Virus genome (UHGV): UHGV-0018110 | Length of the DNA: 24,291 nt | Direction: 5' to 3' (one strand) | From: a virus | Shown: positions 230-23,583 of the stretch, piece by piece | How the letters are laid out: every line of letters begins with the position of its first letter | Position numbering within the stretch: position 1 is the first letter of the stretch | Position numbers and translations under genes: made by a program | The notes under the pieces: model-generated | Seen by the model: the letters and a program-made list of their open reading frames with translations, nothing else | The model's database searches: none | What the model was told of the DNA's origin: nothing

Positions 230-448
230 TTAAAGCCAAAGTTGCTGTTGCTGGTTTCTTACTGGATGGGGCGGGGCAGGCTCAACAGCTCCCGGCTTCA
301 TGATGAATCTCGATAGCGTCTCAAAAGTTATAAACGTGCAGCCACAATTAATGTTTTGGCACTGATGATAACGCTCTTTCGTTTCGGTACTAAGGTATCT
401 GCTAGTGCGAGCATGAGCGGCGTTCTGGCATAACGGGCAATGCATCAT
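230..448 (-). CDS. ogr: Late-gene transcriptional activator Ogr/Delta (zinc-finger)
   Basis: 72-aa ORF MMHCPLCQNAAHARTSRYLS...HQCQNINCGCTFITFE with the CxxC...CxxC zinc-finger arrangement; close to P2 Ogr from memory. Sits at the prophage end after gene D, as in P2. Confidence 0.9.
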   Translation of the reverse strand: MMHCPLCQNAAHARTSRYLSTETKERYHQCQNINCGCTFITFETLSRFIMKPGAVEPAPPHPVRNQQQQLWL

Positions 449-2186: not shown

Positions 2187-4628
2187 TCAGTCATGGCCCA
2201 TACTGGCACGCTGACGCGCACGCTTTTCGCGCTCAATCTGTTCGAGCGTGTCGCGTAGCTGTCTGTCAAGCTGATGCCCCGGCGCAACACCTCCCGGCAG
2301 AGTGATGTTGTATTCGCTTTTGCTCTGGTCAATGTAAGAGCGCCCCGCCGGTACGGTAACTGGCTGATAAGCCTGATAGCCGCCATATGTGTTGGTTGCC
2401 GGGATGTAGGAATTACCCTGCGTGGCAGCGTTGGTTTTGGCGGCAGTCTGGTCGAGGCTGTCCGATTCTTTGTTGATGATGCCGAGTTTTTCGAGAAGCC
2501 AGTCGACACCGCTGCGCAGCTTGTTAAAAACATTGAGCGGAGCCATCAAGGCAGAGGCCAGTGCCTGACCAAAAATAACGCCGACATTTTTGCAGCTATC
2601 AAGCGTCTCCTGCGTGGCCTTGACCGGGGCAATCAGGTCTTTAAACCATTGCCAGACGCCGTGCAGCTTCTCACCGAGTCCGTCAAAGATTGGAGCCAGT
2701 GGAGCGAACATTTCCCCGACCGGCGCAAAGGCGCTCATGATGCCCTCAATCACCCCCGAGAAAAATGCGCTGATGGGCTCCCAATATTTGCGGATGAGTA
2801 GCGCCCCGGCCACAATCGCCGCACCGACGGCCACAATCGGCCAGGTAATCGCACCGAGCGCTGTCACAATGGCACTACCAGCAACAGTAAAGACCGTACC
2901 CAACACGCCAGCAGCGGCGATAATGGCGTTAATCCCCATGACAACCGGCCACGCAACGAGACCAATGCCGCCGATGATACCAATCAGAGCAAGTGCGCCA
3001 CCGGCAATAATGCCGATAGTTGTCGCCAGACCTTTGTTTTTCTGGATCCAGCCGTCGAGCTTTAACACATACTGCGTGGCGGTTTGGGTGAGTTTACGCA
3101 GCGAGCCCTCTTGCTGGTCAAAAAGGTCGGTACCGACTGCCTCATAAGCCGACTGGAACTCTTTAAAGTCGCCGCCGAGGTTATCCTGCATAACCTTAAC
3201 CAGTTCCTCGGTTTTACCGTCCGAGGCTTTAAAAGCGGCAGTAAGCCGGTCAAGTTTGCCGCTTGAGGCTGCCTCCATAAGCACCGCCGCCGCCGAGCTG
3301 GCCTCCTCGCCGAAAATGGTTTTCATATACTCGCCGCGCTGGCTTGTTCCGAGGTTGTTTTTCTCAAAGCTGCGCTGCATTTCTTTCAGGATAGAGAATA
3401 TCGGGCGCGTGTTCCCCTTGCTGTCGGACGTTTTGACGCCGAGTTCCTTAATGGCCTCAAACGCTTTTCCGGTGGGAGCCTGCAGGCGGCTGAGAATGGC
3501 GCGGCTACCCGTACCCGCCATTGACCCGGTGATTTTGGCGTCGTGCAGCGCACCGACCATTGCGGCGGTTTGCTCAATGCTCACCCCGGCATTTTTCGCC
3601 ACTGGCGCGGCATAGGTCAGCGCGTCGCTCAGTCCGTCAAAATCGGCGGCGGTTTTGTTCATCGTCATCGAGAGAACGTCGCCAATGTGAGCAATCTTGT
3701 CGTTTGAAAGTTGAAACGCTGATTTCATCCCGGTCAGCAGCGCAGCGTTTTCCTCCATAGAGCGCCTGTTTGACAGCGCCATATTCAGCGTGACCGGCGT
3801 CGCCGCCTGAATGGCAGCAGCGTCACCGCCGCTTTTCGCAATGATGATTTGCGCGCTCGCTGCGTCATCTGCAGAGGCGGCAGTATTGTCGCCGAGCTGG
3901 CGCGCCTGTTTGCGTAGCGCTTCCATTTCTGGCGACTGCTTATCGACCCCGAGCACGGCCTGCAGCTCGGAGTTTTTTTGCGCAAAGTCATAACCGGGCA
4001 TCAGCAATTTAACCCCGGCCATCGTTCCCGCTGTCGCAATACCGACCCCGGCAGCACCTGCAGCGGCCATGTTACCGGCAAGCTCCTTACCCGATTTATA
4101 TCGCTCTTTCACTCGGTTTAGGTGCGCCTGCTGTGCGCTGACCTTCGCCAATGCTTCACGCTGCCGGTTGAGCTGCGCCGTCGTCTCGCTGATACGTGTT
4201 TTAAGCCCCCGCTCATCGTTTGCCAGATTGCGGGTATTGATACCGGCGGCACCCAGCTCGCGTTGCTGGCGTTTAACCGACTCGGTGAGGCTGTTGTATT
4301 TAACCTGCAGCCCCTCGGCGGCACGTTTTGCGGATTCGAGCACCTGTGCCTGCGCTCGCGTCGGGCGCTCAGTATTTTTGAATTGCGTGGCAAGCGCTTC
4401 AGCCTCGCGCTTTGCCTTCTCCAGCGACTGGCCGGTTACGGCCAGTTGAGCGCTGGTTTTGCGAAAGCCGTCGATTTTCGCGGCCTGCCCGTTCAGGTCA
4501 CGCAGCCCTTTTTGTGTGTCGCGAATATCGCCCGACAGGGTTTTACTCGCGGTCTGGATGGATTTAAGCGGTCGGGTCGCCTGGTCGACCGCTTTCAGCA
4601 AAACCTCAAGTCTCAGGTTATTACTCAT
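2187..4628 (-). CDS. T: Tail tape measure protein
   Basis: 813-aa ORF, coiled-coil-rich N-terminal half (QAAKIDGFRK..., repeated A/Q/E/L/R), Gly/Ala-rich hydrophobic segment, immediately downstream of E/E'; typical tape measure. Confidence 0.9.
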   Translation of the reverse strand: MSNNLRLEVLLKAVDQATRPLKSIQTASKTLSGDIRDTQKGLRDLNGQAAKIDGFRKTSAQLAVTGQSLEKAKREAEALATQFKNTERPTRAQAQVLESAKRAAEGLQVKYNSLTESVKRQQRELGAAGINTRNLANDERGLKTRISETTAQLNRQREALAKVSAQQAHLNRVKERYKSGKELAGNMAAAGAAGVGIATAGTMAGVKLLMPGYDFAQKNSELQAVLGVDKQSPEMEALRKQARQLGDNTAASADDAASAQIIIAKSGGDAAAIQAATPVTLNMALSNRRSMEENAALLTGMKSAFQLSNDKIAHIGDVLSMTMNKTAADFDGLSDALTYAAPVAKNAGVSIEQTAAMVGALHDAKITGSMAGTGSRAILSRLQAPTGKAFEAIKELGVKTSDSKGNTRPIFSILKEMQRSFEKNNLGTSQRGEYMKTIFGEEASSAAAVLMEAASSGKLDRLTAAFKASDGKTEELVKVMQDNLGGDFKEFQSAYEAVGTDLFDQQEGSLRKLTQTATQYVLKLDGWIQKNKGLATTIGIIAGGALALIGIIGGIGLVAWPVVMGINAIIAAAGVLGTVFTVAGSAIVTALGAITWPIVAVGAAIVAGALLIRKYWEPISAFFSGVIEGIMSAFAPVGEMFAPLAPIFDGLGEKLHGVWQWFKDLIAPVKATQETLDSCKNVGVIFGQALASALMAPLNVFNKLRSGVDWLLEKLGIINKESDSLDQTAAKTNAATQGNSYIPATNTYGGYQAYQPVTVPAGRSYIDQSKSEYNITLPGGVAPGHQLDRQLRDTLEQIEREKRARQRASMGHD

Positions 4629-5108
4629 TGTGGTGTCCGCTACGCTGCAGCGCCTTTTCGCGCCATGTGATGAGCTCGGTCAGGCTCAGGGAATAGAGAT
4701 CTGATAGCGGCCAGTGGAATATCACCGCGATATCCGCCATCAGGTCATCGGTCGACAGGTCGGGCGGGAAATCTACTCCGCCGAAGCCGGTGACAAAAAA
4801 CCAATCACCTTAGCGGCCAGCGACAGCATATCGGGCAGGTTCATTGCGGTAAGCTCCTGCGCCGTAAGCGCGGGGTAGGTCATGCGTGGCAATACCTTAA
4901 TCAGCGCATCGACTTCGGACTGCGCCACCGCTGCCAGACTGACACCGCGCAGGGTACCGGCGTTGGGCTCAATCAGGGTGACTTTATCAATCGTCTGACC
5001 GGCGCGCTTAATCGGCTTGTCGAGGGTCACGACGTTCGGGTTTACGGTGTCAATTTCATTGCCAGCCGTATCAACAAATTCAGCGGTTTTACGTGGTGCT
5101 TTAGCCAT
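4621..5108 (-). CDS. E': Tail assembly chaperone E+E' (-1 programmed frameshift fusion)
   Basis: Slippery heptamer T TTT TTG on the minus strand (4794-4800) in the X XXY YYZ phase of the E frame. The -1 frame then runs 57 codons with no stop (VTGFGGVDFPPDLSTDDLMADIAVIFHWPLSDLYSLSLTELITWREKALQRSGHHNE) and ends at a TAA that overlaps the T start codon, as in the P2 E/E' arrangement. Confidence 0.7.
4773..5108 (-). CDS. E: Tail assembly chaperone E (frame-0 product)
   Basis: ORF upstream of T; start chosen at MAKAPRKT (internal Met of the track ORF 4773..5153) from gene spacing after FII; ends TAG at 4773-4775. Confidence 0.75.
   Translation of the reverse strand: MAKAPRKTAEFVDTAGNEIDTVNPNVVTLDKPIKRAGQTIDKVTLIEPNAGTLRGVSLAAVAQSEVDALIKVLPRMTYPALTAQELTAMNLPDMLSLAAKVIGFLSPASAE
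4794..4800 (-). other. -1 ribosomal frameshift slippery site TTTTTTG
   Basis: Seen directly: plus strand caaaaaa at 4794-4800 is TTTTTTG on the coding strand, in the correct phase. Confidence 0.7.
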
Positions 5109-5170
5109 GATTTTTTCTCTGCTCTGAAAGGGGATTAATAACCGGCCAGCCATGCTGACCGGTCAGGGAA

Positions 5171-5689
5171 TTACAGCCCGATTGCGCGGCGGTGCTGTTC
5201 CAGACGGTCGACGCCGTTCACCTTCTCGACCATGTTGACGGTGTCGATTTCGATGACGTCGCTACCATCAATCGTCAGGCGGTAATAGGTGCAAACGGTC
5301 GACAGTTTGGTCGAGGTGTTTTCACCCTGCTTATTTTCGCCGCCGTCGATTTCTTTATGACGGCCACGCATGACGACCTCGACCGCGATGATTTCGCCGG
5401 TGTCGTCGCGCTGGTAGGATCCAGCAAAACGCAGCGGCACAGCGTCAGCACCCGGCGCGGCGTACTGCGCCCACAGAGCCACATCAGGCAGGCCACCGAC
5501 AGACCACTCGACGGTGAGCGCATCATCGTCGAGACCGAGGTCAATCGCCGCCGCCCCATTCATACCGCCGCCGCGATAGTTTTCGAGCTTGCGGGTCAGC
5601 TTCGGCAGCGTCACGGATTCAACAACGCCCATGTAGCTCAGACCGTCGTTGAACATATTCAGATATTTGAGTTTGCGGGGTAGTGCCAT
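5171..5689 (-). CDS. FII: Tail tube protein FII
   Basis: 172-aa ORF directly downstream of the sheath gene; size and position as P2 gpFII. Confidence 0.9.
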   Translation of the reverse strand: MALPRKLKYLNMFNDGLSYMGVVESVTLPKLTRKLENYRGGGMNGAAAIDLGLDDDALTVEWSVGGLPDVALWAQYAAPGADAVPLRFAGSYQRDDTGEIIAVEVVMRGRHKEIDGGENKQGENTSTKLSTVCTYYRLTIDGSDVIEIDTVNMVEKVNGVDRLEQHRRAIGL

Positions 5690-5704
5690 GTTATTTCAGG
5701 CTCC

Positions 5705-6883
5705 TTAGCTGTTGACCGATTCGGCCAGATTCACCAGATATTTATCGGTGATACGCTGGCGCAGGGTCAGGCTTTCCAGTGGTGGAACCGGCGTATAGTC
5801 GTAGTCGATATACAGTTTCCCGGCCTTGAGGGTTTCCTTATCGTTCGATTCCTCGTCGAACCAGCATTCACCGTCCACGATGTAGCCATTTGATTTCAGC
5901 TCGCGGAATTTGGCATTAATGCCGTCGACAATGTCACGGATGAGCGATGCGGTGATGGGCTTATCGACCGCCCACATGTGCGCCTCAGCCATCGTGTCGG
6001 CCAGCACCTGCGCGGTGCGGGTGTAGTTCTCAAACAGGAAAAGCGGGTCATCAGAGCAGGTGCGGTTACCCCAGAAGCGGAAGCCATCCTTACGCACCAG
6101 TGTCGTGACCCCGGCCTCGTTGAGCAGATCAGCATCGGTGCCGGATGCCTGCAAATCCCAAAACACTGACGCACTGATGCCGGTAACACCCTGCACGCCG
6201 ACGTTAGACAGGGTTTTGTGCCAGCCGACGGTCTGGTCGATATAGGCACGCAGGCCGAGTGCGCGCGCGGTGGCGTAGGCTGTTGCGGTGGCGTTCGCGG
6301 TGGTGTCCCATGCGAGGAAATCAGGCCAGATAAGCATCAGTTCGCGCTGGCTGAAATTCTCGCGATAGGCCATCGCCTCGGAAATAGTCTTACAGCCCCA
6401 TGCACTGACATAGCCAAAGGCGCGCAGGCTGATACAGACCGACGCAAGTGCGACTGCGACCTCTTTGGTATCGAGCCCCGGCACGCCGAGAATGCGCGGC
6501 TTAACGCCGGTGACCGCTTCGGCAGTCAACAGCGCCTTGATACCGGTGTATTTACCGTTCTCATCCGTGCCGCCGATGATATTGGAAATGGTCTGCGCTT
6601 CCGCGTCTTCTCCGGTACCTTCGGCAACACGCACGACAACGGTGACGGGCTTTGACTGGTCGGCGATGGCCTGCAGGGAGGCAGACAGCGTGCCTTTTTT
6701 ACCGGCTTTCGCAATGGCGCTCTGCACATTGGTAATCAGTACCGGCTCGTTGAGGGGAAATGTCGCGGCATCCGCATCGCTGGCCGTGCAGACCATGCCG
6801 ACGATTGCAGTCGCGACCGTAGAAATAACACGCGTACCGTCATTGATTTCGATGACCTGCGTGCCGTGGTGAAAATCACTCAT
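5705..6883 (-). CDS. FI: Contractile tail sheath protein FI
   Basis: 392-aa ORF, first gene of the FI-FII-E-T-U-D block; similar to P2 gpFI from memory. Confidence 0.9.
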   Translation of the reverse strand: MSDFHHGTQVIEINDGTRVISTVATAIVGMVCTASDADAATFPLNEPVLITNVQSAIAKAGKKGTLSASLQAIADQSKPVTVVVRVAEGTGEDAEAQTISNIIGGTDENGKYTGIKALLTAEAVTGVKPRILGVPGLDTKEVAVALASVCISLRAFGYVSAWGCKTISEAMAYRENFSQRELMLIWPDFLAWDTTANATATAYATARALGLRAYIDQTVGWHKTLSNVGVQGVTGISASVFWDLQASGTDADLLNEAGVTTLVRKDGFRFWGNRTCSDDPLFLFENYTRTAQVLADTMAEAHMWAVDKPITASLIRDIVDGINAKFRELKSNGYIVDGECWFDEESNDKETLKAGKLYIDYDYTPVPPLESLTLRQRITDKYLVNLAESVNS

Positions 6884-7014: not shown

Positions 7015-7443
7015 TTATTCCGGTTGTTCCGGCCATTCAATATCTGTTGAATTGATATCTATAGCGTCCAGCTTATCAATGTAGTCCAAAACAGCATTCA
7101 ATCTTAGAGTCTCGCTCTCAGTTAGCTTTCTGCCCGCCTGCATCTTTAATTGAATAACAGCTATAGAGCTCATAGCATTATCAATTCGGTTTTGCCTGTC
7201 AGCCTCAACTATTGCAATCAATTCATCGTGTGAAGGCGGAGCCAAATCAGCCCACACAGGCAAACCCTGTGCGCTGGCCGTCCTGTATTTATCTTCGGGA
7301 ACTAAACCCATGAAGTATTTCTGAAACTCTGAATCCGTGATTTCAACAATATCATCTGGCAGTGTTCCGGCTTTCTTATACGAGTCCATAAGAACACCTG
7401 AATACGCTATATTCTCTGATGGTGAATAATAATACTTCTGCAT
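7015..7443 (-). CDS. G: Tail fibre assembly protein (gpG-like chaperone)
   Basis: ORF directly downstream of H; start set at MQKYYYSPSE (internal Met of track ORF 7015..7515) because it abuts the H stop; AT-rich like the H 3' part. Confidence 0.75.
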   Translation of the reverse strand: MQKYYYSPSENIAYSGVLMDSYKKAGTLPDDIVEITDSEFQKYFMGLVPEDKYRTASAQGLPVWADLAPPSHDELIAIVEADRQNRIDNAMSSIAVIQLKMQAGRKLTESETLRLNAVLDYIDKLDAIDINSTDIEWPEQPE

Positions 7444-7445
7444 AA

Positions 7446-8489
7446 TTAGTACCCTATAGCCAGCCAATGGACGGTAGGGGTATACCCCAAAATGCGGGAG
7501 GTGACAGAGACACATGCATTTGTGCGCGAGCCTGCTTTCCCATCACTCCCGGCGCTCATATTTGAGCGTATAAACGTATTGAATTCGTTAGCTTGCCCCT
7601 CAAAAGTAGAGCCTGCCAAAGTCATGAAATTGACCAACGCCATATTAGGGAAAGCAACCGTATAAAGAGGCTTTGTATAATGGGTGTACCATGTTACCCC
7701 CCCCACTGTTTCCGAGTTATAGTTACCGACAGCTGATAAATTCCATATTCCCCATTGAACAATTATGCCACTCGGTAAATATTGAATACCATTTGACCCT
7801 TTCGTCGCCTGAAAAAATGACATATCCGGTACTTGCCCACTTCCCGAACCTACATTTTTTTTGGCGGCATTCCCTAACCCGAGGTTTTCAAAAAGCTTAT
7901 CAATCAGCCCCGCGTCGGCTATCTCCTTGAGCGCATTAGCAATCAGGGGGTACTGTCTGTGCGGGTTAGCTGCATCAACATGCTTTTTCATCAGGTCATC
8001 AGCATAGGCTTTCACCTCGATAACCTTATCGTCAACATACTGGCGCGTTGCCAGCACGACCGACGGGTCGATTTTCAGGGTGATGGCCGACGTGCTCGAC
8101 ACAATCAGAATCATGCGAATGGTCTGCGTGCGGCCGCTTCCCTCCTGCAGTTGCGGTTTGTAGGTCTCCGGACAGTTCGCCACGGCAATCAGAATACCGT
8201 CGTCGTCATAAAGGCCAATCTCGCGGATCCAGAAACCACCTTCATTCTCGGGAATAATCTGTTCCGCGATAATCTGACTGGTATTGGCCGGGTCAACGGT
8301 CAGCAGGTTCAGCGGCGCGATGCGTTTCTGGTTAATGAGCTTCGTCTGCGCCGGGTCAGGGGTCGGCAACGTACCATTCGCATCACCGACGGCCATCTGC
8401 GTCAGGTTGAGTTTGGTACCGAGTGCCGCCGCGTTCGCCAGCCGCGCCGCGCCCTGATTGGTCAGAATGGCAAAATATTTTGCGGTCAT
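7446..8489 (-). CDS. H: Tail fibre protein H (conserved N-terminus, divergent C-terminal receptor-binding part)
   Basis: 347-aa ORF; N-terminus (AILTNQGAARLANA...MAVGD...GGFWIREIGLYDDDGILIAVAN...EGSGRTQTIRMILIVSS) resembles the P2 gpH N-terminus from memory; the C-terminal half is AT-rich and unrelated. Confidence 0.85.
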   Translation of the reverse strand: MTAKYFAILTNQGAARLANAAALGTKLNLTQMAVGDANGTLPTPDPAQTKLINQKRIAPLNLLTVDPANTSQIIAEQIIPENEGGFWIREIGLYDDDGILIAVANCPETYKPQLQEGSGRTQTIRMILIVSSTSAITLKIDPSVVLATRQYVDDKVIEVKAYADDLMKKHVDAANPHRQYPLIANALKEIADAGLIDKLFENLGLGNAAKKNVGSGSGQVPDMSFFQATKGSNGIQYLPSGIIVQWGIWNLSAVGNYNSETVGGVTWYTHYTKPLYTVAFPNMALVNFMTLAGSTFEGQANEFNTFIRSNMSAGSDGKAGSRTNACVSVTSRILGYTPTVHWLAIGY

Positions 8490-9094
8490 GCGTTCACTCT
8501 CAGATTATCAATCAAATGGATGGCCGAGGCCGGGTAATATTCACCGCCGACGACAATCTCCTCGGGGGTGTAGGGGTAAACAGTCAGCGCGTCGCCGTGA
8601 TAGCATCCCGCGCCGACATACAGTTCGCCGGTCGAGCTCAGACTGATAGCCAGCCCGGTCAGGTGGCGACTTGCCGGTTTGGCGTCTTCAATCAGTCGCT
8701 CAAGCTCCTGATACATTTCGTCAGTGATGCCGCTGTCGAGGACGCCAACAACGAGGCGGAATGTGCCTGGCTCCTCGTCGAGTTGCCACCACTCGCGCAC
8801 CTCAATCAGAAAGCCGAGCGGCTCGACGACCCGACGCAATGCGCTGATGGTGCCTTTGTGCTGATGGACGAAAAACGAGGACGCGCAGACGCTGCGCTTT
8901 GTCGCCTCCAGCCATTTCTCATCCCACCTGTCGACCGACAGCGCCCACGCCAGATACGGCAGCAGCTTTACCGGGCAGGTGCGCCAGTTCCACAGGGTGC
9001 GCAGCGGTACCGGCACGCGCTGAATCTCAGAGAGTGCAGCAGCGGCGGCAACTTCCAGCGGCGACGAGCCAACGGGTAACAGCCTGTCACTCAT
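8486..9094 (-). CDS. I: Baseplate assembly protein I
   Basis: 202-aa ORF between J and H, coupled by start/stop overlap; P2 gpI position and size. Confidence 0.85.
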   Translation of the reverse strand: MSDRLLPVGSSPLEVAAAAALSEIQRVPVPLRTLWNWRTCPVKLLPYLAWALSVDRWDEKWLEATKRSVCASSFFVHQHKGTISALRRVVEPLGFLIEVREWWQLDEEPGTFRLVVGVLDSGITDEMYQELERLIEDAKPASRHLTGLAISLSSTGELYVGAGCYHGDALTVYPYTPEEIVVGGEYYPASAIHLIDNLRVNA

Positions 9095-9995
9095 CCGAGC
9101 CCCCGATAGTTATCTGGTACTCGGTGCAGTTCGACGCCTGCGACTTACTCAGCACAATATCGGTCTGAGGTGATGCCAGCTCGACACGCTGCACCCCCTC
9201 AACATGCAGCGCCGCGTAAATGGCCGACAGACGGATATCACGCCCGAGGCGGTGCTGCGCGCTGATGTAGCTCTGCAGCTTCTGCTCTGATGCCTGCCTG
9301 ATGGGTTCAGATTCGGGGCCGGGGTAAACGTAGAGCGTCGCGTCAATCTGGTACGGCACAATCTCGGCTGACTGGACGGTAACCCGGTCGGCCACCGGGC
9401 GCACATCTTCGGCATTCAGCGCTTTATCAACAATCGCCAGTAGTTCAGGACTAGCAGTGCCGTCACCCTCGCGCGATAGCACGGTAATCGTCACGCAGGC
9501 TGGCGACGGACTTGCGACCGAGACGTCAGCGACCCGCCCGTCGGCGCTGCGACCGTGATACTCATATGCCCCGACCGGACCCGCCACGCTCAATCCCTCA
9601 AACGCCTGTTGCGTGCGCAGTCGCAGGTCAGTATCGGATTCCATAACGGCAGGTGTCGGCGGAATGGTGGTGTCATCCGCCGGGGCGATGGTCAGGCGTT
9701 CGGTATTGTTGTTCCCTGCCACGACGTCGAGGTCGTTACCGGCGGAATATGCCAGCGTCACCGCCTGCGCGGCTTCGTTCACCCGCTGACGCCAGATAAC
9801 TTCACGGTAGGCGTTTTCCTGCAGCAGCTTAACAATCGGCTCTGACTCAAGCGCGAGCGTCCGGGCAATGGACTCCTGCTGGTCTTCGGGATAGAGCGAA
9901 ATCAGTATCGCTTTGCGTTCCGCAAGGATGGTTTCATAGTCCAGTTCCTCAACCACGTCGGGAACGGGTAACTGACTCAGGTCAACGGTTGCCAT
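9087..9995 (-). CDS. J: Baseplate assembly protein J
   Basis: 302-aa ORF between W and I; P2 gpJ position and size. Confidence 0.85.
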   Translation of the reverse strand: MATVDLSQLPVPDVVEELDYETILAERKAILISLYPEDQQESIARTLALESEPIVKLLQENAYREVIWRQRVNEAAQAVTLAYSAGNDLDVVAGNNNTERLTIAPADDTTIPPTPAVMESDTDLRLRTQQAFEGLSVAGPVGAYEYHGRSADGRVADVSVASPSPACVTITVLSREGDGTASPELLAIVDKALNAEDVRPVADRVTVQSAEIVPYQIDATLYVYPGPESEPIRQASEQKLQSYISAQHRLGRDIRLSAIYAALHVEGVQRVELASPQTDIVLSKSQASNCTEYQITIGGSDE

Positions 9996-10001
9996 AGTGA
10001 T

Positions 10002-10349
10002 TTAACTCAGTGAAACAGTGGTTGAAACTGACGCACCGGTATCGGTACGCATCCCGGTAATATCGACATACATTTCGCCAGCGTCGCCGGTCTCAAAGCT
10101 GATGGCGGTAAGCCGGATGCGCGGCTCCCACTTCTGGATAGCCGAATAGCACGCCACCATAATTTGCAGCCTGAGCGCCGGGTTTTGCGGCATATCAATC
10201 AGCGCCGACAGAAGCGAGCCATATTCACGGCGCATCACCCGCGAGCCGACCGGCGTCAGCAGTATGTCGCGCATGCTCTGACTGATGTGCTCAGTGTCGC
10301 TGATGCCGAGGCCGGTATTTCGGTTCATCCCCTGATAGCGCGCCGTCAT
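10002..10349 (-). CDS. W: Baseplate assembly protein W (gp25/GPW family)
   Basis: 115-aa ORF between V and J; size and order as P2 gpW. Confidence 0.85.
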   Translation of the reverse strand: MTARYQGMNRNTGLGISDTEHISQSMRDILLTPVGSRVMRREYGSLLSALIDMPQNPALRLQIMVACYSAIQKWEPRIRLTAISFETGDAGEMYVDITGMRTDTGASVSTTVSLS

Positions 10350-10981
10350 AACGGAGCCCCCGTTTGCCCGCCGCTGTCGCCCGGGTGTTTATGGGTGTGG
10401 AGCACCTTGCCATTAGACGACAGTGACCCGCCGGAATGTTCGATATTGCCGCTCATCTTGCCGCCTTTCTGCACCTCAAGCGTCGCCGTCGTCAGCTTAT
10501 TGGTGCAAATCACCTCCGGGGTGTCGAGGGTGATACTGGTCGAGGCTTTCACCAGTACCAGCGGCACGGTTACGGTGATGGACTCCGATGCCGTCACGTC
10601 GGCCGTTTTTATGCCGCTGACCGTCAGCGCGCCGGTTTCGGGCTCGTACTCAATGACCGCACCATCAGGGAAAGCCACATGCCACGCATCCGCCGAGGCC
10701 GACGGAGCGGGGTTATCGTCGGAGAAAATACCCGGCAGCACGAAAGCGGTATCAAGCTCACCACCGATTGCCAGCAGCAGAACCTGCTCACCGACCGAGG
10801 GAGCCCACCACGTCCGCGAACGACCGGCACGGTTGGTCAGCCAGTTCAGCCATGTAGTCTGGATCCCGCCGCTTTGTACGCGGCACAGCCCCTGCACGGT
10901 ATCAACCTCAGTCACCACGCCTGAGCGGATGAGGTTGCGAATCGCGCGCGCGAGCTCCTGTATCGTGGATAACGTATTCAT
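10346..10981 (-). CDS. V: Baseplate spike / assembly protein V
   Basis: 211-aa ORF upstream of W with start/stop overlap; P2 gpV position and size. Confidence 0.85.
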   Translation of the reverse strand: MNTLSTIQELARAIRNLIRSGVVTEVDTVQGLCRVQSGGIQTTWLNWLTNRAGRSRTWWAPSVGEQVLLLAIGGELDTAFVLPGIFSDDNPAPSASADAWHVAFPDGAVIEYEPETGALTVSGIKTADVTASESITVTVPLVLVKASTSITLDTPEVICTNKLTTATLEVQKGGKMSGNIEHSGGSLSSNGKVLHTHKHPGDSGGQTGAPL

Positions 10982-11049
10982 AGTGCAAGGATGCCTCTGG
11001 TCTGTAGTCGCGCCAATTCGCGCGGCTCCGGTGGTGGTTCACACAATAT

Positions 11050-11499
11050 TTATTTGCCGAGGTGCCTGATAATGACGTCTTCAATCATCTGCTCATCGTC
11101 GCGGGTGAAGCCGAGCAACGGGCGGGCATCGTACTGCACATCCCGGCTGTTGCGGTTTGGCCGGTCTTTGAGCCCGTACTGATGCACCCGCGCCATGCGC
11201 TGCACCTTGCCGGTAAACTCCACCACCGCCGCACTGTCGCTGCCTTTAGCTTTCATAAAGCGGTTGGTGCGCAGTTTGGCGAACATTTCACGTTTAATCC
11301 GACCTTTCTTGCTCCGCACCGGCTGGCGCTTACGCGCGGCATACGGGGTGCCGTCGGGTGCCTGCTGGCGCTTGATGCGCTGTTGCTGACTGGTACGCAA
11401 CTTTTTCGCAACCTCAGCCGCCATTTGCCGACGTGCCGCCGGTGACAGGCTGGCAATCAGACCGGCAAGGCGTTCCTGCAGCGCGGTTAATTCACTCAT
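11050..11499 (-). CDS. S: Tail completion protein S
   Basis: 149-aa ORF downstream of R with overlap; P2 gpS position and size. Confidence 0.85.
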   Translation of the reverse strand: MSELTALQERLAGLIASLSPAARRQMAAEVAKKLRTSQQQRIKRQQAPDGTPYAARKRQPVRSKKGRIKREMFAKLRTNRFMKAKGSDSAAVVEFTGKVQRMARVHQYGLKDRPNRNSRDVQYDARPLLGFTRDDEQMIEDVIIRHLGK

Positions 11500-20225: not shown

Positions 20226-21284
20226 ATGGCAGGTGAAACTCAAAATATTTCAGCAATGGCGGAAAAGATATCTTCCGATTTATTTAAGTGGTTCAAGTGG
20301 GAGCTTGTTGGGGTAACCAATGAAAACTTTCAGTGTTTGAAGTCTACGCAACATAAAACAAAGTCTGGAACACACCCGACTGATGTTGTTTTTTCCTATA
20401 AGGATCCATACTTAAATCGGACGATTTTTTTAAATACAGATTTAAAAAGTTATGTAAAAGGGTCGATAACAGCAACCTCAATGCGAAACGCATTAGTCTC
20501 ATTGGCTAACTCTATTGATTGCGCAGAAGGTAGCAAGGAATGGAAGGATAGATACTCTTATCAAAGTGGCTCTTCTGAGGTTAGAGGAATGCTCTTTGTA
20601 TATAATCATGATGGTGAGTTTGACAGATCGTTCTATGATGTGTTTTATCAGTCTTATAATGCAGAAACTGATAAAACAAAACGGGGTATTAACCTTGATA
20701 ATATTCCTCTAAAACAAGGTCAGAAGATTCATATTATTGAGCCGAGAACTATAAATTATTTGCAATCAATAATTACGGACTTGTCTCAACTGAGTCACAA
20801 TCGAGAATTTCCTTTAGGTAAAAATTACCAGTTCTTTTACCCAGACCTATCACTTCATAAAGTTAGCGGGTCACCTGAAGAACACCCGGCAACAGTAGAG
20901 TTGTTAACGGGGCCTTTTTTGATAATTAAACACAACGATGTTAAACATTGTGATGAAGAAACTTTAGAGTGGAAAACAACCTATAAGCATGGTTATGTTA
21001 TTTATTACAATGGCGAGGGTAATAATGAATTAGAGTTTGTTTATATTCTTGATACGTTATCAAAATACCAACTCTTGGATGGAAATGAAAAGATAAGAAT
21101 TAGAATTGTACATCCAAGCATTTATAAAGATGTTCGCAGTATTTTTATGCGTGCTAAGGAAACATACTGTAGAGAATGGGGTTTCGATGAACATAAAAAA
21201 ACCATCATTGATGCCATTGATTTTCACCAAGTTGAATTTACAAAACCTCACTTCAGTTCTGTTGAGATTGGTTGGGAGCGATAA
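20226..21284 (+). CDS. Hypothetical protein, operon gene 1; possible PD-(D/E)xK-type nuclease motif near the N-terminus
   Basis: 352-aa ORF with good RBS and AT-rich codon usage. Residues around 50-74 read HPTDVVF...IFLNTDLKSY, a hPD...(D/E)xK-like arrangement. No family recognised. Confidence 0.7.
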   Translation: MAGETQNISAMAEKISSDLFKWFKWELVGVTNENFQCLKSTQHKTKSGTHPTDVVFSYKDPYLNRTIFLNTDLKSYVKGSITATSMRNALVSLANSIDCAEGSKEWKDRYSYQSGSSEVRGMLFVYNHDGEFDRSFYDVFYQSYNAETDKTKRGINLDNIPLKQGQKIHIIEPRTINYLQSIITDLSQLSHNREFPLGKNYQFFYPDLSLHKVSGSPEEHPATVELLTGPFLIIKHNDVKHCDEETLEWKTTYKHGYVIYYNGEGNNELEFVYILDTLSKYQLLDGNEKIRIRIVHPSIYKDVRSIFMRAKETYCREWGFDEHKKTIIDAIDFHQVEFTKPHFSSVEIGWER

Positions 21285-21286
21285 GT

Positions 21287-22411
21287 ATGAAAATCGGTTT
21301 GTATAGCGTTAATGACAAAGCTATGTTTGATGCTCTCAATCAAACAAAGGTGACTCATGAAGACATGAAAAGCCTTTTTTTCAAAAGAGGCACTATTATT
21401 TCTAAGGATACAAAACGGAAGACTTTAGCTTTGGATTTTTCGAAGAACTTCCACGGCTATTATGACTTTGAATATTTATCAGAAATTCTTGGATCTGTAG
21501 GGAGAAGAGAGAAAGTATCAATTAATATTGTCAACAGTGCAATTAGTTTAAGTGATATGGAAGTCACAATAAAATCTATATGTGAAGAATTACAAAAAGA
21601 GGGGGATGTAACAAATATCAATTACACCGAGAATGGATTTGAGGTGTCAGTAAAATATGTCAAGCTGGATTTTAAAATGAGCGAGTTTCGGCAATCCTCA
21701 TCTCGCGAGGCTAAAATACAAGTAGAGTTGAATGATGAGGGAGAGTATATTACGCGCTTCCCTCAGAATGCCAAGGCACATGAGTTTAATGAACTTTTGA
21801 TTAAAAAAATAAAAGAAACTAATAATGATGAGCCTGTAAGTCTTGAAGAGATATCGCTTGAAACGGTCAAAGATTCAAATGAACGTAGTCGTTTCTTTAA
21901 AGAACTGATCGTTAGTATGCCAAATTACAAATGTGTCGATGTGTCAGATGTTTATGTCACCCATCCAGTATTAGAGGTTAAAAAACCATCTGAATCTGAA
22001 GATGATGAAGATGACTCGGATGAGGATGATGATGCTGTAATAGACACTGGGTATCATATTTCAAAGGCATCATTGAAAGGAAGGGGTGTCCTTGAATCAC
22101 CAGAACTGGAAGAGTTATTGGGTAATGGGTTTTACATTACAAAGATAATATGGAGTTCGGTAGTCGAAGGTTTTAAAGACTCCGATAAGTATGAATTCGA
22201 AGCCCAGTTTGTGGATCCGGATAAATGTAAGCTGTTTTCTTATCTCGTTCGTGGATGTTATAAATATAAAAAAGTAAATGTGTTTACTAATCGGCAAAAT
22301 GTGGATAAGGAAAAAGAAAATGTGCTATTATTATCAATAGAAAAAACGGCTCGAGAAATCTCTAATAGAATAATATCTTTAAATACTCTCGAGGTAGTCA
22401 CTGAAAAATAA
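21287..22411 (+). CDS. Hypothetical protein, operon gene 2; contains a poly-acidic tract
   Basis: ATG 2 nt after the gene 1 stop with GGGAG upstream (the track ORF begins slightly earlier at a TTG); about 374 aa; tract SESEDDEDDSDEDDD at nt 21989-22033. No recognised motifs. Confidence 0.7.
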   Translation: MKIGLYSVNDKAMFDALNQTKVTHEDMKSLFFKRGTIISKDTKRKTLALDFSKNFHGYYDFEYLSEILGSVGRREKVSINIVNSAISLSDMEVTIKSICEELQKEGDVTNINYTENGFEVSVKYVKLDFKMSEFRQSSSREAKIQVELNDEGEYITRFPQNAKAHEFNELLIKKIKETNNDEPVSLEEISLETVKDSNERSRFFKELIVSMPNYKCVDVSDVYVTHPVLEVKKPSESEDDEDDSDEDDDAVIDTGYHISKASLKGRGVLESPELEELLGNGFYITKIIWSSVVEGFKDSDKYEFEAQFVDPDKCKLFSYLVRGCYKYKKVNVFTNRQNVDKEKENVLLLSIEKTAREISNRIISLNTLEVVTEK

Positions 22412-22422
22412 AAGGAGTTGTT

Positions 22423-23094
22423 ATGAAAACAAAATGGTTTACTGCCAACTTCCCTGCCGGTCTCGATAGGTTATACCAGGCCATCATAAACACGCCTTTT
22501 GACAGTGACAAAGGTTGGGGGTTTAGTATTCTTTCATATGAAGATAAGTATATATCTTCAAAATATATTGAAAGGGTTGAGGTAAGCGAAGTAATCATAG
22601 ACCCCTATGGTAATGAAACTGAGTTTAATCATTTCAAATATGTGCAGTTTAACTTTTGGTTTTTTAAAGCTCAAGGCGGTAACTTCATTTTAATAATTGA
22701 TTCTCCGCCTAGAAGTATCAAGGGTTTTATCTCCAATGTGATTAAGGCAACTGAATCCGATTTTAATGTTTCTTATCTTGTGATTCAAATTGATGAGTTT
22801 ATAAAATTTATCACGCCTCACTTCGAAAAGGTTCAGGTGCACAAGGCCAAATTAAAGGATTTGACTTTTAGTAAAAATACATCTGGCATTTTAGAACTTG
22901 AGTCTTCAAATGACGCGATAGATGAGATGAGAAATATTTTTAAAAATGCAAAATTCACGATTGATAAAGTTAAATTGAGTGTTAAATCTAACACTGGCAA
23001 TGAAACATTAGAAGTGAATTCCAATGGTTCTCTTAGCTTCTCAGAGGAGCTTTTTGATAAGATATTCTCTGCAGTTGAGCGTTTCACTTTCTAA
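22423..23094 (+). CDS. Hypothetical protein, operon gene 3
   Basis: 223-aa ORF with a canonical AAGGAG RBS 5 nt upstream, 11 nt after gene 2; AT-rich; followed by a terminator. No recognised motifs. Confidence 0.7.
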   Translation: MKTKWFTANFPAGLDRLYQAIINTPFDSDKGWGFSILSYEDKYISSKYIERVEVSEVIIDPYGNETEFNHFKYVQFNFWFFKAQGGNFILIIDSPPRSIKGFISNVIKATESDFNVSYLVIQIDEFIKFITPHFEKVQVHKAKLKDLTFSKNTSGILELESSNDAIDEMRNIFKNAKFTIDKVKLSVKSNTGNETLEVNSNGSLSFSEELFDKIFSAVERFTF

Positions 23095-23509: not shown

Positions 23510-23583
23510 TCACGTATTGGCAAAAGATGGGAAGAAAAAAAACGAATAGGTCGATTGCCGTATGTGCATGATATGGATATGAA

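Follow-up and report, generated by a model that had tools for sequence, protein, structure and literature searches.

The DNA analysed here, called the window throughout, is a stretch of 24,291 nt from the virus genome UHGV-0018110 and carries the late-gene region of a P2-like prophage. Genes on the minus strand follow the order ogr, D, U, T, E/E', FII, FI, G, H, I, J, W, V, S, R and onwards, and the terminase and portal are encoded on the plus strand. After the portal, positions 20226-23094 of the plus strand hold three consecutive ORFs of 352, 379 and 223 aa that match PADLOC Hp1, Hp2 and Hp3 (E = 3e-65, 6e-36 and 5e-8, respectively). These ORFs gave no Pfam match and the stretch is rich in A/T runs. 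The three ORFs probably represent a candidate anti-phage system at the P2 accessory hotspot.

Gene H encodes the tail fibre (Table 1). Its N-terminus matches Pfam PF12571 (E = 6e-63), the protein matches PHROG tail-fibre families, and the DNA for its N-terminal 150 residues is 94-95% identical to several P2-like phages. As in P2 gpH/gpG, the gene order is J-I-H-G-FI, with the baseplate genes J (PF04865) and I (PF09684) before H, an N-terminal Phage_tail_fib domain (PF12571) in H itself and a Caudo_TAP chaperone gene directly after it, which identifies H as a P2-type gpH. Unlike P2 gpH, which has 669 aa, the H of the window is far shorter at 347 aa, and its distal module bears no relation to the one in P2. 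Sequenced phage isolates offer no close homologue of the module, tblastn against phages returning only homologues of at most 41% aa identity. In P2, gpH is the first protein to bind the host and depends on gpG for assembly (PMC9594776). The start codon of G lies 2 nt past the stop codon of H. A mechanical ORF list stretches G to 166 aa (7015-7515, minus strand), overlapping the end of H, and some gene callers use a later start that gives 124 aa. We place the true start at 7443 because of the Caudo_TAP match, the gene calls at loci related to this one and the presence of an ATG 2 nt beyond the stop of H.

Table 1. Coordinates of tail-fibre gene H, its neighbours and the features within it, numbered from the first letter of the window.
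Feature	Position	Strand	Details
Baseplate gene I	8486-9094	minus	Pfam PF09684; upstream neighbour of H, in I-H-G mosaic block
Tail-fibre gene H, 347 aa	7446-8489	minus	N-terminal collar domain (residues 1-150) plus distal module
Distal module of H, low in GC and imported (residues 199-347, approximately)	7446-7895	minus	Recognised by GC, GGG-rich codons and occurrence on other scaffolds
hix/gix-like motif TTGAAAACCTCGGGTTAGGG, encoding (F)ENLGLG	7872-7891	minus	At module boundary in H
A8 homopolymer	7855-7862	minus (T8 on plus strand)	nt 628-635 of H, codons 210-212
G8 homopolymer	7697-7704	minus (C8 on plus strand)	nt 786-793 of H, codons 262-265
Chaperone gene G for tail-fibre assembly, 142 aa	7015-7443	minus	Pfam PF02413 Caudo_TAP, E = 3e-24

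The distal module of H differs in composition from its surroundings. Its GC content is 45% versus 57-62% in the flanking tail genes, and distal H together with G forms a separate compositional block of 43-46% GC, with the change near position 7900. When the two parts of H are set side by side (7446-7895 vs 7896-8489), glycine codon usage shifts sharply and GC falls by about 12 points. This sharp shift in GGG usage and GC inside the gene marks the recombination joint. Residues 238-347 match PF21882 (Gp53-like_C) at 23.5 bits, below the cut-off of 24.9, and the homologues P0003-P0005 carry a precomputed match to the same family. Searches with the distal module and G by megablast and blastn gave no close match among phages, complete E. 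coli genomes and plasmids, and a sequence search of the PDB gave no match. An AlphaFold2 model of the distal 160 residues, built on a 6-sequence alignment, reached a pLDDT of only 47.5 and was too poor to place the Gly-Gly dipeptide discussed below; it gives only a hint of a beta-hairpin turn and is not counted as evidence.

Four homologous modules were compared with that of the window as DNA; their protein identities are 87% (L019/P0001), 78% (L020), 76% (L001) and 64% (L021/P0003). In L001, a Pluralibacter MAG, the module and its TAP gene sit on a different fibre N-terminus, and in L020 (P0002, Klebsiella pneumoniae) the module lies in a cassette beside a Resolvase/HTH_7 invertase. L001, L019 and L020 all have a TAP gene after the homologous module, so G travels with the distal module. 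Because module and TAP gene recur on another fibre and in a cassette (L001 and L020), G8 lies in an exchangeable receptor-binding module. This agrees with the initial annotation, which had put the run in the receptor-binding region of a tail fibre.

The motif TTGAAAACCTCGGGTTAGGG at the module boundary resembles, in our estimation, a hix/gix crossover site. The window contains a single copy of it and has neither an inverted partner for the motif nor a pair of inverted repeats. In L020, its counterpart forms one of the two arms of a 27-nt inverted repeat (5072-5098 and 6777-6803) beside the invertase gene, and the homologous fibre end is in the silent orientation. We considered an invertible-segment switch in the window and rejected it, as there is no invertase, the sheath gene coming straight after G, and no partner site. 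The L020 module and chaperone are like the Gin/Cin/Hin segments of Mu, P1 and e14 in forming an inverted-repeat cassette beside a serine invertase, and the window keeps one crossover-like motif at its module boundary. Unlike them, the window has neither an invertase between G and the sheath gene nor an inverted partner site, and a host-range switch of this type is therefore not operating in it. The motif is probably what remains of a site at which a DNA invertase once made its crossover, and the fibre end of the window probably descends from an invertible cassette. Judging by the arrangement in L020, the distal module would, in at least one relative, be switched by the classical invertase mechanism.

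The coding strand of H does contain the run of eight G that was first described: the codons read GTG GGG GGG GTA, encoding V-G-G-V, and the run is placed 76% along the gene. The second run that was pointed out, in the codons AAA AAA AAT (K-K-N), is also real. It was said to lie about 155 nt downstream of G8, which is true in plus-strand coordinates only; in the direction of the gene it lies 158 nt upstream. Both are uninterrupted mononucleotide runs inside an ORF and are long enough for slippage to be elevated.

Runs of at least 8 nt number four in the 24.3-kb window, three of A/T and one of G/C. Two further A8 runs are on the plus strand at 207-214 and 23535-23542, the first just past the point where the ogr-like gene (230-448, minus strand) ends. 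G8 is the only G/C run of at least 6 nt, where a first-order Markov model predicts 6.9. The same model expects 0.35 G/C runs of at least 8 nt per window and produces at least one in 30% of simulated windows. The window's genes encode 36 Gly-Gly dipeptides, of which only this one is written GGG-GGG, and a codon-usage model over these dipeptides expects 0.13 G runs of at least 8 nt. G8 is uncommon in the window, yet it is not statistically remarkable, nor is it beyond chance. Bacterial genes in general contain fewer poly-G/C runs than expected (PMC2831843).

It is less remarkable still in view of the glycine codons of the module. GGG makes up 11 of the 19 glycine codons in the distal module (58%) and 1 of the 11 in the N-terminal part of H, and its share is 18% window-wide and 19-40% in the homologous modules. 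With GGG encoding 58% of the module's glycines, a GGG-GGG pair is unsurprising there. L020 has a G6 run at another Gly-Gly, in CCA GGG GGG ATC. G runs appear to arise sporadically where GGG-rich codon usage meets a Gly-Gly dipeptide, with no conserved site among the modules compared.

We computed what slippage in either run does to H. Loss of one G (G7) gives GTG GGG GGG TAA, an immediate stop and a product of 264 aa. Gain of one (G9) gives 264 residues and 17 out-of-frame codons (GNMVHPLYKASLYGCFP) followed by TAA, for a product of 281 aa. G6 is equivalent to G9, and G10 to G7. In the other run, A7 leaves 212 aa and A9 leaves 255 aa. None of the G- or A-run slips computed fuses an alternative C-terminus to the fibre, and every one of them drops at least 83 of the approximately 110 residues matched by Gp53-like_C. 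The truncation predicted in the initial annotation for a +/-1 change is real, with the loss being exactly 83 residues and not about 90. Because both G8 frameshifts merely truncate the protein, host range could only be lost by them, not changed, and because no frameshift supplies another C-terminus, an "off" state could be nothing other than a fibre that lacks the distal domain. Such a truncated fibre would presumably be non-functional.

The sequence G_GGG_GGG is, in the zero frame, a formal slippery heptamer of the type X XXY YYZ, raising the possibility of programmed recoding, in which a ribosomal -1 frameshift, or transcriptional slippage on G8 or A8, would leave a defined share of the fibre truncated at 281 aa. 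However, there is no RNA structure downstream of the heptamer (the minimum free energy has a z-score of +0.65, and 143 of 200 shuffled sequences fold as well), the -1 frame lasts a mere 17 codons, and none of the homologues has the heptamer. For these reasons we regard recoding as exceedingly improbable. A matching protein is also missing from the 15-billion-protein collection searched.

At the nucleotide level, the run does not extend to the homologous modules. The aligned Gly-Gly is written GGC GGC in all four (L001, L019, L020 and L021), with no run. The codon before it is ATA or GTA and the codon after it ATT, ATC or AGT, giving I/V-G-G-I/V/S. The A8 position is broken in all four as well, and L019 writes the same K-K-N as AAAAAGAAC, the synonymous AAA AAG AAC.

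Variation within the allele carried by the window was examined in public sequence data. The exact H protein is on record as BAO36522.1 from Serratia marcescens SM39 and is also listed as "MULTISPECIES [Enterobacterales]"; single-residue variants of it are named from Klebsiella (K. pneumoniae) and E. coli, and its 90% cluster has 22 members. It occurs in 44 index blocks and its T49A variant, P0008, in 36, with the frame intact. DNA was retrieved for 24 distinct public records of the near-identical allele. The tract is G8 in 22 of them, G7 in one and G6TG in one, and no record has G9; A8 is unchanged in 24 of 24. The G7 record, L031 (Logan ERR315167), has a called product of 264 aa (P0014) and carries an independent P59L substitution in H. 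Its missing G is the only indel relative to the window in 6.8 kb, a length that includes six other homopolymers of at least 6 nt. The G6TG record, L016 (Logan DRR198810), has a synonymous GGG to GGT change at codon 264 as its sole difference in the 1044 nt of H, and its sheath, tube and E genes are 4-8% different from those of the window. The tract is thus not retained across alleles or orthologues: the conservation in relatives that had been put forward as a check fails both at the GGC GGC of the homologues and at this synonymous change.

About 12-15 distinct variant events are found in the 1044 nt of H. Two of them fall inside the 8-nt run; on a count of 12 DNA events, approximately 0.1 would be expected there (binomial P of about 0.004), an enrichment that is biased, as L031 was fetched for its 264-aa product. 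These two events, with G7 in 1 of 24 records, are in line with the warning that the run is prone to slippage or a sequencing hazard. Two other losses or apparent losses of H came to light among the records. In L039 (ENA ERZ28614768, a metagenome assembly), a 4-nt deletion (GGAA) at H nt 349-352 splits the gene into ORFs of 124 aa and 222 aa, an independent inactivation unrelated to homopolymers. L022, which has no H call between I and G, was considered as an H pseudogene and rejected. Its DNA is identical to the H of the window, and the missing call is therefore an index gap and not a frameshift. The only other indel besides G7 among the compared loci is a length polymorphism of the T6 at 5111-5116, in the intergenic region between the tube gene FII and E, which has an extra base in L014, L016 and L017.

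Frameshift products were also sought as proteins. Ten of them, together with seven remnant ORFs, were absent from the 15-billion-protein collection by exact look-up, which covered G6, G7, G9 and G10 in the commonest background, G7, G9, A7 and A9 in the two commonest, and seven possible C-terminal remnants. Such protein look-ups under-count frameshifts because NCBI assemblies annotate frameshifted genes as pseudogenes without a protein. A flank-anchored pattern, AACTCGGAAACAGT N{5,12} TAACATGGTACACC, had 0 copies in viral and metagenome contigs.

The near-uniformity of G8 among the records has to be read against the history of the locus. Among the prophages L014-L031, the I-H-G segment (7015-9094) is only 0-0.2% diverged (I up to 0.7%), versus 3-8% for the sheath, tube, E and T genes on either side (4446-6883 and 9095-11499). 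I-H-G looks like a host-recognition module that has been exchanged recently and widely across three genera. Given this low divergence, uniform G8 within the allele reflects youth and not selection, and because the segment spread so recently, conservation of the run inside the allele is uninformative either way.

A purely technical reading would hold that G8 is stable, that both variants are short-read or assembly errors, and that the run is a hazard to sequencing only. Each of the two variants was seen once, in an automated assembly of a public run (a Logan contig), and confusion of GGT and GGG is a known Illumina error type. In addition, a 1-kb contig (L047, Logan ERR10101736) begins inside the G run, at H nt 787, which hints at assembly breaks there and suggests trouble in the assembly graph. 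On the other hand, L031 matches the window in length at all six other homopolymers, so its assembly is not generally error-prone, and its P59L substitution marks a distinct strain. Slippage in runs of 8 nt is well-established biology, the indel rate climbing exponentially with homopolymer length in E. coli (PMC8510543). We find the technical reading unlikely, and the G7 of L031 was probably made by slippage and not by sequencing error.

The same variants bear on the suggestion, made in the initial annotation, that the run is an on/off switch for host range. In its strong form, G8 would be an evolved contingency locus, kept as a hypermutable switch of the fibre, with populations mixing ON and OFF phages as a form of bet-hedging. 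Its place in a receptor-binding module, the variant enrichment of the tract, an OFF allele that is the one indel in the 6.8 kb of L031, and its standing as the only longer G/C run in a window otherwise depleted of them are all in keeping with this, and there are phage precedents in the polyG tracts of Campylobacter phages and the simple sequence repeats (SSRs) of T-even phages. However, the tract is absent from every homologous module and is synonymously broken in the otherwise identical allele of L016. The OFF state simply destroys the sole long-fibre gene, by truncation only and with no alternative product. Neither a +1 variant, an A-run variant nor any predicted frameshift product was found, and approximately 80 index blocks and the exact look-ups yielded no further OFF record. 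The run is also late in the gene, and GGG-rich codon usage accounts for its origin. The hosts, moreover, are Enterobacterales, which are taken to be proficient in mismatch repair, unlike Campylobacter; to our knowledge, the Campylobacter host lacks the classical mismatch repair system.

Known homopolymer switches differ from G8 in similar ways. PolyG tracts are used in the receptor-binding genes of Campylobacter phages (Fletchervirus; Sorensen 2021, Cell Rep 35:109214, as cited in PMC10877375 and PMC12823448). As the citing papers present them, these are like G8 in being G homopolymers inside a receptor-binding protein gene, where a +/-1 slip shifts the frame. Unlike G8, they are, by the same accounts, recurrent and conserved, with demonstrated length heterogeneity and phenotype; the tract of the window is found in one allele only and is absent in the homologues, with a single G7 among 24 records. 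SSRs of at least 6 nt have been proposed as contingency loci across coliphages (Gomez, Barrick & Waters, bioRxiv 10.1101/2025.10.21.683753). By the working definition of that study, G8 counts as a "putative CL", and it resembles the agt and rIIA loci of T2/T4 in being a mononucleotide run of at least 6 nt in a phage ORF, open to reversible +/-1 slippage frameshifts. The T2/T4 loci, however, were validated by reads at approximately 2000x, revert about 1e3-1e4 times faster than point mutants and lie in dispensable genes subject to trade-offs. The same study finds fewer SSRs than expected (0.77x) in the tail-fibre genes of coliphages and in their other infection genes, which also argues against a fibre switch. 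In bacteria, the poly-A of Listeria inlA is likewise an intragenic homopolymer in which slippage creates a premature stop, and functional homopolymer tracts are biased to the 5' ends of genes (Orsi et al. 2010, PMC2831843). Functional bacterial tracts of this kind lie preferentially at the 5' end and recur independently across strains, unlike G8, which lies far along its ORF and is lineage-specific. As far as the records allow comparison, G8 appears to lack the hallmarks of such loci: conservation across alleles, frequent ON/OFF states, a 5' position, and a useful OFF state or alternative product. We therefore consider an evolved switch highly doubtful.

A weaker form of the same idea is that G8 is a young contingency locus that already works, slippage during lysogeny or phage growth continuing to yield fibre-OFF genomes with G7 or G9. 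The G7 record and the enrichment of variants in the tract also fit this, but we judge it very unlikely. If it were true, the G7 of ERR315167 would be a natural OFF and the GGT of DRR198810 a "locked-ON" derivative, and the gain would be one of bet-hedging, for example through non-adsorbing particles or protection of sibling lysogens. The range of phage contingency loci would then take in a temperate phage, P2-like and with enterobacterial hosts proficient in mismatch repair, as well as a gene essential for adsorption.

Taken together, our results favour, with a probability of roughly three in four, the reading that G8 is an incidental, allele-specific by-product of codon choice and a modest frameshift hotspot. 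The conserved Gly-Gly would have come to be written GGG GGG between the valine codons GTG and GTA, creating the run within a receptor-binding module that is low in GC, rich in GGG and a recent import into the fibre gene of a P2-like prophage. An 8-nt run of G would then act as a local hotspot of replication slippage and be awkward for sequencers. A -1 slip should stop translation at once and a +1 slip 17 codons on, either one costing 83 of the approximately 110 distal residues and presumably leaving a dead fibre gene. Slips may occur now and then as part of prophage decay, and would be neither maintained nor used as a switch; the run itself is presumably under no selective maintenance. So far, with one -1 variant and one run-breaking substitution, G8 appears to behave as expected of a homopolymer of 8 nt.

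The practical consequence concerns annotation. Long-read or low-coverage assemblies of Serratia, Klebsiella and E. coli lysogens that carry I-H-G may mis-call G8, and a mis-called run would enter the annotation as a "frameshifted" tail-fibre pseudogene. The tract is worth verifying before such a prophage is engineered or induced. Knock-outs by slippage have already been described in bacteria, in Campylobacter phages and in T-even phages. For the biology of this P2-like prophage, G8 would matter little, as one more mononucleotide run able to kill a phage gene by slippage.
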